The translations under genes were made by a program, and so were the position numbers. Under the pieces are notes generated by a model. It made no database searches, had not been told where the DNA came from, and saw only the letters and a list, made by a program, of their open reading frames with translations. A stretch of DNA of 40,933 bases, from positions 1 to 40,933 of the IMG/VR virus record IMGVR_UViG_3300028804_000025. One strand, given 5' to 3'. Shown one piece after another: positions 6,976 through 40,579 of this stretch (position 1 is its first letter; each line of letters begins with the position of its first letter). The DNA is from a virus.

Positions 6976-7084
6976 GGTTAAGCCCCCTCTCCATTGCGGC
7001 GACGATCTTGCTGAAACTGAGTTTTGAGCGCATCCCACGGCGCTTCATTCGGCCATCGCTTGCGGGTGATCCAAATGTTAGGTT

Positions 7085-7762
7085 TCACAACAGCCCCTCC
7101 TGCACGCATTCGCGCGGGGGTTCGGGCGGTAGTAGCGTGCCCTGCGCCTGGGCGCGACTGATGCGCTCGCAGGCGATGTCGAAATACTTGCGCTCGCGCT
7201 CGATGCCGGTGAACGCCTTGCCAAGCTGCGCGCACGCTACGCCAGTTGTCCCGCTGCCCATGAACGGGTTTAGCACCGTCTGCGCCTTGTCGGCAAAGTC
7301 CAAGCACCACGCCATCACCTGCACAGGCTTCTGTGTAGGGTGTACCGCGCCATCCTGCGCAATAGCCGCCCGGTTCAGCGTCATGGAGCGCAGCGCCTTG
7401 TCCAGCGTGCTGTACGCCAGTTCGCAGTCGCTCTGGCTGATCCGCTGCCCCTTGTCCCACACCAGCCACCCCATGCTTGGCCTCAGGTGCTGCGGGTAGT
7501 AGTTGGCGCCCCAAATAATCAGGTTCGCGGCCTTCTCGTGCATCAACCCGAACAGCCACGCGGGCGGTGCGTCAGCGTCCCAGCCCATGAACTCATAGCC
7601 CTTGTGCCCGCCGTGGCTGCTGGTGCTCGGTGGCTTGCCGTCGCGGCCAATCCCATAGGGCGGGTCCGTCAGCAGCAAGTCGTGCACGGGCAGCAGCGGC
7701 AGCACCTCGCGGCAGTCTCCGTGCCACAGTTCCGCGTTCCCGATCACTACTTTCTCAGCCAC
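7085..7762 (-). CDS. DNA N6-adenine/N4-cytosine methyltransferase, beta class (225 aa, GTG start)
   Basis: DPPY (LLLTDPPYGIG) precedes NPFMGSGTTG. AAGGAG lies 6 nt upstream of GTG 7762. Confidence 0.85.
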   Translation of the reverse strand: MAEKVVIGNAELWHGDCREVLPLLPVHDLLLTDPPYGIGRDGKPPSTSSHGGHKGYEFMGWDADAPPAWLFGLMHEKAANLIIWGANYYPQHLRPSMGWLVWDKGQRISQSDCELAYSTLDKALRSMTLNRAAIAQDGAVHPTQKPVQVMAWCLDFADKAQTVLNPFMGSGTTGVACAQLGKAFTGIERERKYFDIACERISRAQAQGTLLPPEPPRECVQEGLL

Positions 7763-7820
7763 TTCAACTCCTTCACGCTTCGGACACAGTGAAACCTAAC
7801 TAGTCGCTCAAGCGGAGCGC

Positions 7821-8054
7821 CTACGGCGCCCGCTTAGCTCGAATGTTGTGCGTCAAAATCCGCCATGCAGCCGCCACCACTCCTGGAACTTGCCCATTGC
7901 CAAGGGCTTTAAGTCTGTCCACCCTGTTGGCCACCCCATGAGCCACTCGACCCAAGGCGGGTTCAGTTGCCCATGCGGCATGTGTCGCCCGTCTGCTTTT
8001 TCTTCGCGGGCTACCGCAAAGCTCAAAGAGTCCTGCTTCGCTACTCCGTCCCAT
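7821..8054 (-). CDS. DNA (cytosine-5)-methyltransferase, C-terminal part (same frame; ATG immediately follows the TAA)
   Basis: EPALGRVAHGVANRVDRLKALGNGQVP carries the motif X GN..VP. The frame is continuous with 8594. Confidence 0.7.
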   Translation of the reverse strand: MGRSSEAGLFELCGSPRRKSRRATHAAWATEPALGRVAHGVANRVDRLKALGNGQVPGVVAAAWRILTHNIRAKRAP

Positions 8055-8590
8055 TTAATTGCTGTCTCCATCGTGCAACTCGCATCGCGAGGGCTGTGTG
8101 TTGGTGTTGGCCAAAATCCAGATTCGTTCGCGCTTGTGGTTTGCGCCAATGGCATTCGCTCCCAGCACTCCCCATTCCGCATCGAACCCCATCGCGGCCA
8201 AGTCTCCAAGCACGGTTCCGAGTCCGCGAAGAGTGAGCATTGGGGAGTTTTCCACGAGCACGAAACGGGGTCGTACTTCGCCAATAATCCTTGCCATTTC
8301 CCGCCATAGGCCGGAGCGCTCGCCGGCAAGTCCTGCGCCATTTCCGGCAATCGAAATGTCCTGGCATGGGAAGCCTCCAGAAACCACGTCAACAATTCCG
8401 CGCCAAGGTCTTCCATCAAAGGTCTGCACGTCATCCCACACGGGGAACGGCGAAAGAATTCCATCGTTCTGTCGCTGGCACAGAACAGCAATGGCGTAGG
8501 GCTGCCACTCAACGGCGCACACGGTGCGCCAGCCGAGCAATTTACCGCCGAGTATTCCTCCACCAGCGCCTGCGAAAAGTGCCAACTCAT
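7853..8590 (-). CDS. 245-codon ORF in a second frame overprinting the C5-methyltransferase gene (status uncertain)
   Basis: ATG 8590 lies 8 nt after the same GGAGG. There is no stop for 245 codons. It contains the WPRWGSMRNG, WPTPT and NPPWVEWLMGWPTGWTDL strings. Confidence 0.35.
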   Translation of the reverse strand: MSWHFSQALVEEYSAVNCSAGAPCAPLSGSPTPLLFCASDRTMEFFRRSPCGMTCRPLMEDLGAELLTWFLEASHARTFRLPEMAQDLPASAPAYGGKWQGLLAKYDPVSCSWKTPQCSLFADSEPCLETWPRWGSMRNGECWERMPLAQTTSANESGFWPTPTHSPRDASCTMETAIKWDGVAKQDSLSFAVAREEKADGRHMPHGQLNPPWVEWLMGWPTGWTDLKPLAMGKFQEWWRLHGGF

Positions 8591-8594
8591 TCAT
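8055..8594 (-). CDS. DNA (cytosine-5)-methyltransferase, N-terminal part (motifs I-VIII), ending at in-frame TAA 8057-8055
   Basis: LFAGAGGG (I), GGFPCQDIS (IV), ENSPML (VI), RERIWILA (VIII). GGAGG at 8603-8599. Confidence 0.85.
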   Translation of the reverse strand: MNELALFAGAGGGILGGKLLGWRTVCAVEWQPYAIAVLCQRQNDGILSPFPVWDDVQTFDGRPWRGIVDVVSGGFPCQDISIAGNGAGLAGERSGLWREMARIIGEVRPRFVLVENSPMLTLRGLGTVLGDLAAMGFDAEWGVLGANAIGANHKRERIWILANTNTQPSRCELHDGDSN

Positions 8595-8631
8595 TCTTCC
8601 TCCGTATCACCATTTGACGCACAATGCGTTA

Positions 8632-8660
8632 GCCGCCACCAGCATCGGCCAGTGGCGGGC
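8632..8660 (-). other. GC-rich bulged intergenic hairpin H0
   Basis: GCCGCCAC-N12-GTGGCGG(G)C, between the Acb2-like gene and the methyltransferase gene. Confidence 0.5.
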
Positions 8661-8667
8661 CATAAAC

Positions 8668-8892
8668 TTAAAACGTGGTCGGTTGTGCAACGCCACGGAT
8701 TGCCCACATGAAGCCCTGTTGCAGGTTTGTCTTGCCAAGTGCAACTGCGCGCTTGTCCGTGCTTTCGTTCGCCATCAGCTTGTCGATGTAGGCACCGCAC
8801 TGTTCAGCCAGTGCCTTGCCTTCGTTCATCAGGTCGATTTCCTCTTGAGAGAGGTCGCGGTAGCCTTTAATCTTCTCGTGCTGGTCTTTCAT
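8668..8892 (-). CDS. Acb2-like protein, candidate cyclic-oligonucleotide sponge (74 aa)
   Basis: KGYRDLSQEEIDLMNEGKALAE...DKRAVALGKTNLQQGFMWAIRGVAQPTTF. The size, the Tyr11/Lys26 positions and the C-terminal T.LQQG.MW..R...P..F resemble the Acb2/Vs.4 family (memory only). Confidence 0.55.
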   Translation of the reverse strand: MKDQHEKIKGYRDLSQEEIDLMNEGKALAEQCGAYIDKLMANESTDKRAVALGKTNLQQGFMWAIRGVAQPTTF

Positions 8893-8948
8893 GGTGGTCC
8901 TTTCATGTTGTGCCGCGTTTTCAGCGGGTCGCGGCTAACCCGTCATTC

Positions 8949-8977
8949 CAGCCGACCGCCGCGAGCGGCGTCGGCTG
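8949..8977 (-). other. GC-rich bulged intergenic hairpin H1
   Basis: CAGCCGAC(C)GCCGC-GA-GCGGCGTCGGCTG, directly after the stop at 8981. Confidence 0.5.
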
Positions 8978-8980
8978 AAT

Positions 8981-9223
8981 TCATGCGTTATGCGTCAATT
9001 CCCGCTGAATGCGCTCACGCAGTTCGTGGGGGATTGTCAGATATTGCTCAACATCCCACGCCTTCAGGTCGGCCAGCAGGTCGCGCAGCCGTTCGTTCTC
9101 TCGGTGCAATTCGAGTATGTCGGCCTTGGCGTCGGCAAATGCGAAGGTTCGTGCTACATCGCTTTGTTCGGTCGCCATCGCTTCCGGCTGGCATCCACTC
9201 CATTGCTCAATCGTTCGATTCAT
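8981..9223 (-). CDS. hypothetical coiled-coil protein (80 aa)
   Basis: ATG 9223 is preceded by GGAGG (9233-9237). The upstream extension to 9307 has no RBS. Confidence 0.5.
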   Translation of the reverse strand: MNRTIEQWSGCQPEAMATEQSDVARTFAFADAKADILELHRENERLRDLLADLKAWDVEQYLTIPHELRERIQRELTHNA

Positions 9224-9319
9224 TTGTTCCAGCCTCCATCTTCTGTGTTTCCAGCAAGCGCCGGGCTTGCTCACCTTGTTTTTGCAGCCAATCCACGAGC
9301 AACGCATAACACGTCAGTC

Positions 9320-9350
9320 AACCGGACGTGCCGCAAGCGGCCCGCCGGTT
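9320..9350 (-). other. GC-rich intergenic hairpin H2
   Basis: AACCGG..GCCGC-AA-GCGGC..CCGGTT, after the stop at 9360. Confidence 0.45.
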
Positions 9351-9359
9351 ACTTCGGCG

Positions 9360-9659
9360 TTATGCCTTGCAATACGCCGGCCGCTCAGACGGGCCTTTCC
9401 CTGCCTCCGCAATCACCTGCGGCGTCCACTCAAACTCTGGCCTTGCCATCACCGGCGTCTCGTCTGTGATGCGCAGGCGTGCGATGTCAAACCACTGCGA
9501 TTCACGCAGTTTTCCGTCTGCGTCCGCGCCTGGATTCACCACCGCTTGGATGCAGCCGTACAGGTCAAACCCGACCGTCGCCACCACTCCCTTGAAACCA
9601 GTTACGCGGTCTTCTACCCGCATACCGAGAAAGTCCAAATGCTTTTTCAGGTTCACCAT
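9360..9659 (-). CDS. hypothetical protein (99 aa)
   Basis: ATG 9659 is preceded by AGGAAA. The composition is protein-like (VTGFKGVV..GC.QA.V.P....G...ESQWFD). Confidence 0.6.
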   Translation of the reverse strand: MVNLKKHLDFLGMRVEDRVTGFKGVVATVGFDLYGCIQAVVNPGADADGKLRESQWFDIARLRITDETPVMARPEFEWTPQVIAEAGKGPSERPAYCKA

Positions 9660-9705
9660 TTCTGTTTCCTTTCGTTGTAGTTACGCCAGGCATAACCCGG
9701 CAGTC

Positions 9706-9740
9706 GAGCTGACCTGCGCGAAAAGCCGCGCAGTCAGCTC
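9706..9740 (-). other. GC-rich bulged hairpin H3, overlapping the stop codon at 9739-9741
   Basis: GAGCTGA(C)CTGCGCG-AAAAGC-CGCGCAGTCAGCTC. Confidence 0.5.
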
Positions 9741-10038
9741 ACTTTTGCGTCGCACGCCTCTTTGGCGGCTCTCTATGCATGACATAGTGGTCGGGCACGC
9801 GCACGCGCCAGTACATGGCTGTGACAGCCTGCACTACGGCAATGCCAATCAGCGCAAGTACGGTGGATGGATGCGCAGGCAGCACGCAAGCTGCCACGGC
9901 CAAGATGATGGATATGGTGGCTAGCAGCGCGAAGGCGTGTCGTACAGCTGGCACGGTGTTGTTATCGGTCTTGCGCAGACGGCAAAAACTGGTGAAGGCC
10001 AGATACCCAGCGAGCGCAAATTGGGAAAGTTCAAGCAT
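9739..10038 (-). CDS. small membrane protein with 3 predicted TM segments (99 aa), holin/antiholin-like
   Basis: Three hydrophobic stretches and a basic C-terminal tail (REPPKRRATQK). 8-nt overlap with the upstream gene. Confidence 0.5.
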   Translation of the reverse strand: MLELSQFALAGYLAFTSFCRLRKTDNNTVPAVRHAFALLATISIILAVAACVLPAHPSTVLALIGIAVVQAVTAMYWRVRVPDHYVMHREPPKRRATQK

Positions 10039-10408
10039 CTTGCCCTCCTTTCACGCCCAGCAAGCGGGCTCTGATCGCAGGCCAGGCGAGACCACTGAGC
10101 GTGTCCCACTTCCAGCCGATCAGGTAGGCTGCAATGCCTGTCACAAACTCTATCGGGAGCTGGATGTAGTAGACGACGATGTGTGTAGCGGGCGCTGTAA
10201 ACAGCAGCGCGGTAAACGCAACTCGTAGCAAGAACAGGCCATCGTGCACGATGGTTTGCCCGCTCTTGCGTGCTGACAGCGCTGTGAACGCCCCCAAGAC
10301 GGCCCCAAACAAGACATAAACATATGGCCCAGCCACAGGCCCGGCTAGCATGACAATGAGCCCCAGCAAGCCGACGCTGGGCGCGACAGCGGTTGGCTCG
10401 GTCATCAT
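10031..10408 (-). CDS. membrane protein resembling a class I (lambda S-type) holin (125 aa, tandem Met-Met start)
   Basis: 3-4 hydrophobic segments. The C-terminus YLIGWKWDTLSGLAWPAIRARLLGVKGG parallels lambda S [23 protein letters not shown] (memory). ATGA coupling at 10405-10408. Confidence 0.45.
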   Translation of the reverse strand: MMTEPTAVAPSVGLLGLIVMLAGPVAGPYVYVLFGAVLGAFTALSARKSGQTIVHDGLFLLRVAFTALLFTAPATHIVVYYIQLPIEFVTGIAAYLIGWKWDTLSGLAWPAIRARLLGVKGGQDA

Positions 10409-10704
10409 GCCCCTTTGGTCTTTGTGAGGTTCCATGCGCCAACAATGGGCGGGCGGCCAGCTTCTTTGAGAATCTGGTTTCGGCTGGCATACAGCGCGAT
10501 CTGCTCCCGCGCTGCGCTGACGTGGCTAAAGTAGTACGGCCCGGTACCCGACGCCTCCCATGCTTCGCCAATCGTCCCAGGCCCCACAATATTGGGCTGG
10601 AGCGCTTGCCAGGCCAAAAAACGCTTCTCTTCAGCCGTCAGTGACTTGGGGTTGACGTACCACGCCGGGTGGGCGGCCATGTTGGTTTGGACAAGGGTTT
10701 TCAT
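10405..10704 (-). CDS. hypothetical protein (99 aa)
   Basis: An ORF with tight spacing to both neighbours. Confidence 0.55.
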   Translation of the reverse strand: MKTLVQTNMAAHPAWYVNPKSLTAEEKRFLAWQALQPNIVGPGTIGEAWEASGTGPYYFSHVSAAREQIALYASRNQILKEAGRPPIVGAWNLTKTKGA

Positions 10705-11115: not shown

Positions 11116-11200
11116 GTGGGGGTGGAACCTCGGGGCCCAACTCAAACTGGGCAGCAGCGCACCCAGCCAGCAGCGCAGCAAATAGCACGGCGCGGATCAT
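11075..11200 (-). CDS. 41-aa lipoprotein ORF (lipobox LLAGC), not in the ORF track
   Basis: MIRAVLFAALLAGCAAAQFELGPEVPPPHGCTEARTRGHDC. ATG 11200 overlaps the upstream stop (ATGA). The ORF overlaps the BTLCP start in another frame. Confidence 0.45.
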   Translation of the reverse strand: MIRAVLFAALLAGCAAAQFELGPEVPPPHGCTEARTRGHDC

Positions 11201-11730
11201 GGCAGCACCTCGGGCATGGGGTCGGCAGGCTGCTCGGCGATGGGCGCCGGGTGACGCAGCGCCAGCAGATCAAGCACCGCCTGCGGCGCGCCATCAATCA
11301 CGGCCTGGGCGGCTGCGCGCTCAGCGGTGTCTGCCTGAATCGCGGGGTTGGGCACCTCCACCTGATTGGCATCCAGGCCAGCCGATTGCATGACGGTGGC
11401 GGGGCCATCAAACGGTGGCCGCGCCAGGCGGGCCTGGGCGGCTTCGTAGGCCATTGCCTGGCTGAGCAAAGCCATATCGGCGCGGGCTTGCCGCCCAGCA
11501 TCAGCAGCGGCTTCGGTCACTGTCTTGACCAGGATGATTTCGCCCATTTCCGACGCTGTTGCTGCGCGCATCTGCGCGATATGGCCCAGCATGATCGTGC
11601 GCAGTTCGTCCTGGCGCTCGACGCTGACAACGCCCGCAACAATGGACCTGACTCGATTGTCAATGTCGGCGTCTGACCACACGTCATTGGCCAGCAGATT
11701 GATGAATCTGGGGATGCTGATGGTGGTCAT
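11197..11730 (-). CDS. hypothetical protein downstream of the tail fibre (177 aa), possible fibre assembly factor
   Basis: The function is suggested by position only. ATG 11730 lies 4 nt after the fibre stop. Confidence 0.55.
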   Translation of the reverse strand: MTTISIPRFINLLANDVWSDADIDNRVRSIVAGVVSVERQDELRTIMLGHIAQMRAATASEMGEIILVKTVTEAAADAGRQARADMALLSQAMAYEAAQARLARPPFDGPATVMQSAGLDANQVEVPNPAIQADTAERAAAQAVIDGAPQAVLDLLALRHPAPIAEQPADPMPEVLP

Positions 11731-31285: not shown

Positions 31286-31858
31286 CTATCTGCCGTTTAC
31301 CAGGGTGAATTTGGCAAAGCCTGTGGCGGCATTGGCAGCTGTGGGGGCGGCTTCAATGCCTGGCAGCGTGGGCTGCACGTAATTGGATGGCTGCACCCGA
31401 CCACGGGCGGCGGGTGACAGACCAAAGTGCATCAGGTAGCGGTTGACCTGCTCGCGCTGCGACTTAAGCAGCTGGGCCAGCACACTCTGTTGCGCATAGC
31501 CGCTTGGCGTAATGGAGTGGCTGACCTCATAGACGGCATCGGCATAAGGCACGCCCTGAGTGACTTTCAAGTCAACCTTGGAATTGAAAGAGGTTTCAAG
31601 ATCCGTAAGTCGGCCAACTGCCTGGCAGTAGAGCGCCAGGGCGGCGCGATCAAGGCCGCTGATCAGGCCAAGCTCTTCCAGCAGGGGGGTAATGCGTTTC
31701 CACTCTTTTCGCGCTTCAGGCCCCAGGTGCTTGGGGATCGATGGGATTTCGACACGCGGATTTATCCCCTCAGCCAAATTCAGAGAGCGTTTTCCAGGGT
31801 TACCTTCAAGCGCTTTCAGGGCTGCGGGCTTCGGTAGAGGCCCACGGGAACCAGTCAT
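31286..31858 (-). CDS. terS: terminase small subunit, P27 family (190 aa)
   Basis: GPLPKPAALKALEGNPGKR...P.HL...A..EW.R....L...G......D...L..YC pattern. Confidence 0.85.
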   Translation of the reverse strand: MTGSRGPLPKPAALKALEGNPGKRSLNLAEGINPRVEIPSIPKHLGPEARKEWKRITPLLEELGLISGLDRAALALYCQAVGRLTDLETSFNSKVDLKVTQGVPYADAVYEVSHSITPSGYAQQSVLAQLLKSQREQVNRYLMHFGLSPAARGRVQPSNYVQPTLPGIEAAPTAANAATGFAKFTLVNGR

Positions 31859-39043: not shown

Positions 39044-39348
39044 GCTCCTTTCGCTTACACGTCACCGGCACCGTCACCACCGCCGAATGCCGCTTCCAGC
39101 GCAACGGCATCCCCCAGGTGATTGCCGAGCTGAAGGACGCAAACGGCCAGACCGTGCGCGCCCACCACAACTACCCGGACGCCAGCGCCACCAGCGCATT
39201 TGCTGCCCGCGCCCTGTGCCGCCAGCTCAAAGGCCAACAGGCCCAGCTGGATGCCATCAACCCAAAATTCAAAGCCCGCCGACTTGACTGCGAGGCTTTG
39301 CTGATTACCACCACGCAAACCCTTCAACACAGACAGGACTTGTCATGA
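39040..39348 (+). CDS. hypothetical protein (102 aa)
   Basis: A coupled ORF. Its last about 33 codons lie in direct-repeat copy 1. Confidence 0.55.
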   Translation: MSSFRLHVTGTVTTAECRFQRNGIPQVIAELKDANGQTVRAHHNYPDASATSAFAARALCRQLKGQQAQLDAINPKFKARRLDCEALLITTTQTLQHRQDLS

Positions 39349-39463
39349 GCCGCAAAGCCAGCATCACCCTACACATCCAAGACGACTACCTGGCTGGTGT
39401 CGTCGTGGCCACTAATATGGCCGCCCCCAGCATTGGCCGCACCGTCACCCCTGCAGAGTCGCT
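39241..39463 (+). repeat. 223-bp direct repeat, copy 1
   Basis: 221/223 identical to 40803-40933 plus 36-127 (offset 1562). The mismatches are at 39245 and 39264. Confidence 0.95.
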
Positions 39464-39479
39464 TGGGGTGACATCATGA
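39345..39479 (+). pseudogene. 5' remnant of the 126-aa gene (40 identical codons plus GVTS, then stop), translationally coupled to the DUF5131 gene
   Basis: MSRKASITLHIQDDYLAGVVVATNMAAPSIGRTVTPAESL is identical to the product of 9-128. ATGA overlaps at 39345 and at 39476. Confidence 0.6.
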
Positions 39480-40579
39480 GCGCCGACACCAAAATAGAGT
39501 GGGCAGACCACACCTTTAACCCCTGGATCGGCTGCACTAAGGTGTCACCAGGCTGCGACAACTGCTATGCCGAAGCATGGGACAGGCGTTTTGCGTTGAG
39601 TGGGCACGATATGCATTGGGGCGCTGGCAAGGCCCGCAAGCTAACAAAGACTTGGGGTGACCCGGTGAAGTGGAATCGCCAGCATGAGGCGTTTTTTGCG
39701 CAGCATGGCCATCGTCAGCGGGTGTTTTGCTCAAGCCTTGCGGACGTGTTCGACAACGAGGTCGATCCAAAGTGGCTCAGTGATCTACTCGATCTGATTC
39801 GCCATACGCCGAACTTGGACTGGCTACTGCTTACGAAGCGGATCGGGAACTGGAAAAGCCGGATGCAAGCCGTGCAGGATCATTTAGGTGCAAGGATGGA
39901 CGCTCTCCCCAAGCCAAGGTCAGTCACTGATGAGGAGTCCGACGCGATGAACTGGGTTGGTGCGTGGATTCTCAACAACAGCGTTGATTCGATTCCAGAG
40001 AATGTCTGGCTTGGGGCAACCATCGTCAACCAGGAAGAGGCTGACCGGGACATTCCCAAGCTGCTGGCTGTGCCTGCTGTCAAACGGTTTCTGAGCATGG
40101 AGCCGCTGTTGGGGCCGGTAGACATTCGCGATTACATGTGGCCAGTGCACCCGTCGTGGCCAGCGAAGTACCGTTCACCATCCGAGGCGATCGCTGATGG
40201 AGCAATGGTTACGTACCACAGGCAAGCGCTGATCTCTAAAGCATGGGCTGATTCCCTTGTGAACTGGGTGATTGTCGGCGGCGAAAGCGGACCAAATGCC
40301 CGCCCATTGCACCCCGACTGGGCACGAAGCCTGCGCGATCAGTGCGTAGCGGCTGGCGTGCCGTTTCTGTTCAAACAGTGGGGGGAGTGGAGTCCAGGTA
40401 ACGTGTTCGAAGCTGTTGGAAGTAAGCACGTGACCTGCATCGACCAGTCTGGGCAAGTGCACCCCTACCCGCCTATCTTCGAACCGATATCTGGTATATG
40501 GCGTATGCATCGCATAGGCAAGAAAGCCGCAGGCCGCTTGCTCGATGGCCGCACATGGGATGAGGTGCCAACATGCTGA
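39476..40579 (+). CDS. DUF5131 (phage Gp37/Gp68 family, three-Cys motif) protein (367 aa)
   Basis: KIEWADHTFNPWIGCTKVSPGCDNCYAE, ...WLLLTKR..., ...FLSMEPLLGP..., ...WVIVGGESGPNARP..., ...VPFLFKQWGEW..., ...GRLLDGRTWDE.P. Confidence 0.85.
   Translation: MSADTKIEWADHTFNPWIGCTKVSPGCDNCYAEAWDRRFALSGHDMHWGAGKARKLTKTWGDPVKWNRQHEAFFAQHGHRQRVFCSSLADVFDNEVDPKWLSDLLDLIRHTPNLDWLLLTKRIGNWKSRMQAVQDHLGARMDALPKPRSVTDEESDAMNWVGAWILNNSVDSIPENVWLGATIVNQEEADRDIPKLLAVPAVKRFLSMEPLLGPVDIRDYMWPVHPSWPAKYRSPSEAIADGAMVTYHRQALISKAWADSLVNWVIVGGESGPNARPLHPDWARSLRDQCVAAGVPFLFKQWGEWSPGNVFEAVGSKHVTCIDQSGQVHPYPPIFEPISGIWRMHRIGKKAAGRLLDGRTWDEVPTC

Follow-up and report, generated by a model that had tools for sequence, protein, structure and literature searches.

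A 74-residue Acb2-family protein encoded on a recently exchanged DNA cassette in a siphovirus-like phage genome

The viral DNA analysed here (IMG/VR record IMGVR_UViG_3300028804_000025; its whole stretch of 40,933 nt is referred to as the window) encodes a 74-aa protein, MKDQHEKIKGYRDLSQEEIDLMNEGKALAEQCGAYIDKLMANESTDKRAVALGKTNLQQGFMWAIRGVAQPTTF, that is a clear member of the Acb2 family. By analogy with the Acb2 of phage PaMx33, it very probably acts as a hexameric sponge that sequesters the cyclic dinucleotides of CBASS. A preliminary description, made from the letters alone, had quoted this protein without naming its strand. Translation of positions 8668-8892 placed acb2 on the minus strand, where an ORF with an ATG start yields the quoted protein letter for letter, whereas the plus strand does not. 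The product carries Tyr at position 11, Lys at position 26 and the C-terminus KTNLQQGFMWAIRGVAQPTTF, just as had been described. The coordinates of acb2 and of the features around it are given in Table 1.

Table 1. Features of the window discussed in the text, with their coordinates
Feature	Position	Strand	Remarks
N6/N4 DNA methyltransferase gene	7085..7762	-	PF01555, E=1.2e-16
C5 cytosine DNA methyltransferase gene	7821..8594	-	PF00145, E=1.9e-30; in-frame TAA at 8055-8057
Stop-free +1-frame ORF in the C5 methyltransferase (METHYLTRANSFERASE) gene	7853-8590	-	245 codons, intact
Shared acb2 cassette	8626..8990; minimal core 8626-8960	-	99.2-100% DNA identity to 8 metagenome contigs (L045-L052)
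GC-rich stem-loop	8630..8662	-	just downstream of the acb2 stop; fold energy not significant alone (z=-1.3)
acb2 ORF	8668..8892 (stop codon included)	-	74 aa; predicted helices 16-41 and 47-69, N-terminal loop with Tyr11
AAGGA Shine-Dalgarno-like motif	8898..8902	-	5-9 nt upstream of the acb2 ATG; read from sequence
GC-rich stem-loop, ~14 bp stem, no T-tract	8950..8978	-	just after the stop of the upstream gene; z=-2.3
Small genes between tail fibre and acb2	8981-9307, 9360-9659, 9739-10435, 10405-10704, 11197-11730	-	candidate accessory genes

A Pfam search matched the protein to one family, PF24729 (Acb2/Tad1 hairpin domain; E=5.2e-20), with residues 10-70 spanning model positions 1-58 of 58. 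The score of 71.8 bits lies far above the curated cut-off of 27 bits and exceeds those of the founding members, PaMx33 Acb2 (66.1 bits) and JBD67 Acb2 (59.6 bits). PHROG 717 was matched as well (E=1.4e-20). When the protein was compared with PDB chain sequences using phmmer, the matches were p26, i.e., PaMx33 Acb2 (E~2e-14), aligned in two stretches (query 1-36 with chain 1-36, query 46-74 with chain 65-93), and T4 Vs.4 (7UQ2; E=2e-3). A profile of diverse short forms, searched against the same database, found p26 (E=9e-30 and 8e-29) and Vs.4 (E=9e-11) and no further match.

The predicted fold pointed to the same proteins. The AlphaFold2 model, built with 65 homologues in the alignment, had a mean pLDDT of 86 and contained the two helices listed in Table 1 and no strands. 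In a Foldseek comparison with the PDB, it matched the Acb2 structures 8H2X and 8H2J (E~5e-5, probability 1.00, TMq ~0.7 (0.71)) and Vs.4 (7UQ2; E~3e-3); only Acb2 and Vs.4 scored below E=0.01, all others having E>1. The hits of a fold search of viral predicted structures (BFVD) were mostly named 'Acb2/Tad1 hairpin domain-containing protein'. The Acb2-like identity suggested in the preliminary description was thus borne out by the PF24729 profile, by sequence similarity to Acb2 and Vs.4 in the PDB and by fold matches limited to these two. The profile and structure comparisons that it had proposed as checks were all positive, and neither of the computational outcomes it had named as contrary (no significant similarity to Acb2, or Tyr11 and Lys26 out of register with the ligand-binding residues) was found. 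PF24729 is a large and well-studied family, and the window gene is an ordinary compact member of it.

We then examined the ligand pockets, using the full PaMx33 Acb2 sequence recovered from the PDB alignment, whose numbering agrees with the literature. In PaMx33 Acb2, Y11 stacks on the base and K26 forms salt bridges to the cyclic dinucleotide, and the Y11A and K26A substitutions abolish binding (PMC10312549); the pocket is also lined by L14 and P90 (PMC12393519). A separate pocket holds the phosphates of cA3 and cAAG through R67 and T74, with A70 and I71; here, cA3 binding is lost in R67A and weakened in T74A (PMC10312549). The window protein has equivalents of all these residues, namely Y11, L14, K26 and P71 (PaMx33 P90) in the dinucleotide pocket, and R48 (R67), A51 (A70), L52 (I71) and T55 (T74) in the trinucleotide pocket. 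Tyr11 and Lys26, named in the preliminary description as nucleotide contacts, indeed align with the PaMx33 residues whose roles are documented in PMC10312549.

Moreover, residues 7-20 of the window protein (KIKGYRDLSQEEID) are identical to those of PaMx33 Acb2, and Y11, L14, K26, R48, A51, T55 and P71 are invariant when it is aligned with PaMx33 and JBD67 Acb2. In its 65 closest homologues, no variation is seen at Y11 or R48, and conservation at K26 and T55 is 90% or more. In a set of 47 diverse short forms (45-82% identical), Y11 again shows no variation and conservation at L14, K26 and P71 is 90% or more, while R48 and T55 vary; published work reports the same pattern across the Acb2 family.

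While family membership, fold, pocket-residue conservation, phage origin and gene mobility were computed here, the hexamer, the ligand binding and its spectrum, and the inhibition of CBASS are inferred from the PaMx33 protein. On this analogy, protomers made of a two-helix hairpin with an N-terminal loop would interlock into a hexamer. Three pockets, each formed by two protomers, would bind CBASS dinucleotides such as 3',3'-cGAMP through Tyr11 (stacking), Lys26 (salt bridge), Leu14 and Pro71. The signal would be held uncleaved, and with the signal sequestered, the CBASS effector would stay off, allowing the phage to complete its cycle. Probably, cA3 and cAAG would also be bound, at the three-fold axis, a proposal we make because Arg48, Ala51, Leu52 and Thr55 match the published R67, A70, I71 and T74. 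This trinucleotide binding, predicted from residue matches, is less certain.

Indeed, the Acb2 proteins of T4 and CHI14 do not bind cA3, for which the authors blame the geometry of the pocket, i.e., the lack of an E64 kink and other helix angles (PMC10312549). According to the same authors, the E64 kink shapes and enlarges the trinucleotide pocket of PaMx33 Acb2 (PMC10312549). Furthermore, T4 Acb2 carrying D61R, which restores the Arg beside a native Thr, still fails to bind cA3 (PMC10312549); trinucleotide binding is therefore not something that can be read from R48 and T55 alone. The window protein may, then, be an Acb2-fold sponge that, like T4 Vs.4 and CHI14 Acb2, has a working dinucleotide pocket and a non-working trinucleotide pocket. 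We consider this less likely than not, and view it as a variant of the main explanation and not an alternative to it; in this case, the shortened hairpin would alter the geometry at the three-fold axis. It draws on the finding that the kink and the helix angles, and not the contact residues alone, decide cA3 binding, on the loop (residues 42-46) that the window protein has where PaMx33 Acb2 has a kinked helix, and on R48 and T55 being less conserved positions among the short forms. However, both contact residues and their hydrophobic neighbours A51 and L52 are all present, and the invariance of R48 and near-invariance of T55 in the 65 closest homologues suggest selection. In addition, no helix lies N-terminal to R48, and the window protein may thus be spared the steric clash proposed for T4.

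A second possibility concerns the signal itself. When Acb2 homologues were assayed against type I Thoeris, 10 of the 46 tested inhibited it, and Acb2_43 binds 3'cADPR without inhibiting CBASS (PMC12393519). By this precedent the window protein could be an Acb2-fold sponge retargeted to a non-CBASS signal such as Thoeris 3'cADPR, which we consider very unlikely. Acb2_43-type Thoeris inhibitors share the overall hexameric Acb2 architecture, but Acb2_43 engages its ligand through additional beta strands at both termini and a different set of residues (T4, H5, L6, V7, K19 and K55), with no Tyr stacking (PMC12393519). The window protein, in contrast, keeps the PaMx33 dinucleotide motif exactly (the 7-20 stretch with Y11 and L14, together with K26 and P71), and its AlphaFold2 model has no strands; Acb2_43 was compared by its description, and residues 1-4 of the model are of low confidence.

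The preferred reading, a CBASS sponge, also has to be set apart from Tad1, which shares with the window protein the hairpin domain that gives PF24729 its name. Tad1 is a larger protein, in which a further domain binds gcADPR. The window protein is the hairpin alone, PF24729 taking up residues 10-70 of its 74, and as this leaves no room for a second domain, we rejected Tad1 as its identity.

Compared with the characterised proteins, the window protein is closest to PaMx33 Acb2 (gp26; 8H2J, 8H2X, 8H39, 8IXZ-8IY2, 8J8O), with which it shares the Pfam family, the hairpin fold, the residues of both pockets and an ...AQP..F ending, at ~53% identity in the alignment. JBD67 Acb2, which binds cGAMP at ~99 nM and cA3 at ~3.5 nM, belongs to the same family and has Y11, K26 and the R and T residues in common with it, at 38% identity. 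Far more distant is T4 Vs.4/Acb2, as its single-sequence E-value indicates: it has the same fold and family, shares the C-terminal motif KT.L....MWA.R.V.QP and binds cyclic dinucleotides, yet lacks an equivalent of the Arg, has no kink and does not bind cA3.

The proteins also differ in length. PaMx33 Acb2 has 93 residues and JBD67 Acb2 108, the latter with a still longer insertion at the hairpin tip. The window protein lacks ~19 residues relative to PaMx33 Acb2, falling roughly within PaMx33 37-63 at the tip; the missing segment includes the part that precedes the E64 kink and is replaced, in the AlphaFold2 model, by a five-residue loop (42-46) before R48. The 58 positions of PF24729 are covered in 61 residues by the window protein, compared with 80 by PaMx33 Acb2 and 95 by JBD67 Acb2.

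Such short proteins are abundant. Database searches returned 1,614 clusters at E<=1e-3, and almost every one of the best 120 has a length of exactly 74 aa. An exhaustive search gave 1,226 family representatives at 50% clustering, many of which are 73-78 aa long and align over their full length at identities as low as 45%. By tblastn, matches covering at least 80% of the query were found in 246 phage records; the best-ranked were mostly gap-free over 74 codons, belonged to cultured phages (Vibrio, Erwinia, Serratia and Yersinia jumbo phages, and Acinetobacter phages) and, with few exceptions, bore the label 'hypothetical protein'. The 74-aa form is not a truncation: the nearly insertion-free fit to PF24729, the higher score and the abundance of 74-aa relatives mark it as the core form, whereas the characterised Acb2 proteins have hairpin-tip insertions. 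The short-form profile detected no short-form structure in the PDB by sequence, and our literature search yielded neither a published ligand spectrum nor other biochemical or genetic data for a 74-aa Acb2. JBD67 Acb2 was considered as a characterised short form, given a published deletion of 228 bp, and was dismissed, its annotated protein being 108 aa.

The relatives of the window protein largely go unnamed. No NCBIfam model matched the window Acb2, which accounts for relatives still labelled 'hypothetical protein' in phage records, and the PADLOC defence-system models matched neither Acb2 nor its small neighbours. The anti-defence gene acb2 is thus systematically under-annotated, and annotation pipelines miss it. 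The 74-aa homologues labelled 'hypothetical protein' include those of Serratia phage BF, the Erwinia pEa_SNUABM jumbo phages, Yersinia fHe-Yen9, Acinetobacter Ac42 and many Vibrio phages; one, in Pseudomonas phage vB_Pae_U2, is labelled 'Rz-like spanin'.

We also compared the DNA around acb2 with that of metagenome contigs. For the eight contigs that we retrieved, DNA identity to the window was confined to about 8626 to 8960-9002. The shared cassette of 335-365 bp is made up of acb2 with ~98 nt upstream and ~42 nt downstream, and is set between different flanks. In-register comparison showed abrupt edges, beyond which six or seven distinct flanks occur on either side; outside the cassette, the sole similarity consists of patches of the N6 methyltransferase (75-90%). 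The downstream edge is the same in all contigs, just past the GC-rich stem-loop at the end of acb2, beyond which DNA identity ends within a few bases. The upstream edge lies at the strong 14-bp stem-loop or, in two contigs, just inside it. These observations indicate that the cassette was exchanged very recently between phages that are otherwise unrelated; we claim no mechanism of transfer. The window contains the upstream stem-loop only once (0 expected), and in most contigs it falls within the cassette. The idea that it is a dispersed repeat marking recombination sites was set aside, as it has a single copy in the window and is cassette-internal elsewhere, with one related copy in L051. Of note, a 365-bp repeat in co-occurring phages could lead to chimeric assembly at the window junctions.

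The retention of the gene bears on whether it is functional at all. The window, with 60% GC, contains many long spurious ORFs, e.g., an opposite-strand ORF of 261 aa with no family match, and the adjoining C5 methyltransferase gene carries a premature stop, so one could view acb2 as a decaying, non-functional remnant or as a chance ORF in GC-rich DNA. We find this barely credible. The length and both ends of the protein fit the family, its score lies above those of characterised members, its functional residues are intact and the identical protein is retained in many different phage backbones. It is listed in 155 blocks of a public assembly collection, which, together with the Pfam E-value and the 1,614 database clusters, places the ORF far beyond chance.

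The window itself is a siphovirus-like phage genome. Its last 35 nt repeat its first 35, as would be expected of a circular assembly of 40,898 bp. In keeping with a phage-encoded family, acb2 shares the window with genes for TerL, portal, S78 protease, HK97-type capsid, tape measure and endolysin. They form one long minus-strand late operon, starting with an HNH endonuclease, a 190-aa ORF (31286-31858; by its position presumed to be the small terminase), TerL, portal, the S78 protease and the capsid. The operon then continues with the tape measure (1,646 aa), a 1,203-aa tail fibre, seven small genes, acb2 and the two methyltransferases, and ends with the endolysin and a 174-aa ORF placed where a holin would be expected (phrog_1544, of unknown function). 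Hence, unlike in PaMx33, acb2 does not lie in the head module; the tail-fibre and accessory genes precede it, and the lysis cassette comes after it. A precedent for its position is JBD67 acb2, which is also found in the late structural operon, between the major head and head-tail adaptor genes. A DNA search of window positions 7000-10500 against 50,697 phage records gave no match, so the phage has no close sequenced relative among them.

A scan of positions 8400-9400 found neither a sigma-70-like promoter nor a canonical terminator flanking acb2; for this reason, we regard the gene as an autonomous promoter-gene-terminator 'moron' as unsupported. Its low GC content, another point of the preliminary description, held in direction but proved modest in size: 0.533 for the ORF and 0.568 for its 1-kb bin, compared with a window mean of 0.601 and 0.64-0.66 for the tail genes.

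As that description had also stated, two DNA methyltransferase genes adjoin acb2; they are of the C5 and N6/N4 types and lie directly downstream on the same strand. Its view of this region as a counter-defence neighbourhood gained ground from four other contigs, in which the identical acb2 lies within 1-3 genes of N6/N4 or Dam methyltransferases; one of the four also has a Lar restriction-alleviation gene nearby. This suggests that acb2 lands in clusters of anti-defence genes. In 43 GTDB loci with homologues (33-88% identical; from marine gammaproteobacteria, Alcaligenes, Acinetobacter and others), none of the 18 flanking window genes was common, bar three weak methyltransferase matches and one holin match, and there is thus no conserved acb2 operon. 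Near identical acb2 genes in other contigs we also observed a 'Sequestin' gene (PF21825); the Lar homologue belongs to PF14354 (L046 204-413; L047 7422-7697).

The seven small genes between the tail fibre and acb2 are mostly without a family match, apart from one transglutaminase-like peptidase. A 108-aa Cys-rich/coiled-coil neighbour had no match in Pfam, PHROGs, PADLOC or NCBIfam, two predicted membrane proteins near acb2 had none in Pfam or PHROGs, and the sole match of the 99-aa protein at 9360-9659 (minus strand) was phrog_37639, of unknown function. Any of them may be an additional accessory or anti-defence gene.

Few phage counter-measures to cyclic-nucleotide immunity are as widespread as Acb2 sponges: IMG/VR holds 4,204 non-redundant homologues, most of the 46 tested inhibit CBASS, and 84 sponges have been screened (PMC12393519). 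Bacteria, in turn, evolved guard systems that sense them, e.g., Panoptes (PMC12657218). Conceptually, the window example adds little; what is of interest is the structurally uncharacterised short architecture and the mobility of the cassette. The abundant 74-aa form, unlike the 93-108-aa proteins studied so far, offers a good minimal scaffold for the role of the hairpin tip, and the DNA-identical cassette across phage backbones provides a clean case of very recent exchange of an anti-defence gene.

These two features can be joined in a bolder proposal, which we consider unlikely as a whole. The minimal Acb2 core, having no kinked-helix tip, might form a hexamer with a more open, differently shaped axial pocket and a ligand spectrum unlike that of characterised Acb2 (e.g., larger or different oligonucleotides), and might spread as a self-contained, hairpin-bounded cassette of 335-365 bp that recombines into unrelated phages beside methyltransferase genes. 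The differently shaped pocket is conceivable because the tip segment that forms the kinked helix is absent.

Two further features of the window were recorded. The in-frame TAA of the C5 methyltransferase gene is codon 180 and falls between motif VIII and the C-terminal GNGQVP motif; the frames of 77 homologous methyltransferase genes are uninterrupted over 235-404 codons. The gene could be a pseudogene, a split gene or the product of an assembly error. Its +1 frame is open, with an ATG 4 nt after that of the methyltransferase (ATGAATGAG). We followed this frame through 77 genes from viral contigs and two phage records (L053-L140; GC 0.46-0.61, 66-84% identical). All 77 keep the +4 ATG, and in 75 this frame stays open for 90% or more of the gene length, ending within a few nt of the methyltransferase stop. 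The average number of +1-frame stops is 0.96 (mostly terminal), compared with 6.0 in synonymous-codon shuffles and 18.3 in the +2 frame; ordinary genes in the window have 1.3-5.4 such stops per 100 codons. The same pattern extends over 168-281 codons in distant low-GC phages (Vibrio, Microcystis, Porphyromonas) and in Che9d gp80. More than 6,000 database clusters are gene calls in this frame, none of them carrying a Pfam domain; PHROG 1008 also represents this frame. A full-text literature search found no paper describing a stop-free +1 frame in C5 methyltransferase genes. The idea that the +1 ORF encodes a conserved, folded protein was not supported: its pairwise identity is no higher than that of the +2-frame control, and its AlphaFold pLDDT is 50. 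Its 'motifs' are methyltransferase motifs read out of frame. The stop-free +1 frame is nonetheless maintained across the phage C5 methyltransferase family.

The second feature is an exact direct repeat of 199 nt (~39265-39463 and ~40827-40933/1-127), with near-identical sequence further upstream. The repeat (1-127 versus 39337-39463, with 72 nt more leftward) flanks a 1.56-kb segment that carries a DUF5131 gene (39476-40579), and the joined ends of the apparently circular assembly, with their 35-nt terminal overlap, lie within one copy of the repeat. It could be a duplication, the footprint of an insertion or an assembly artefact.
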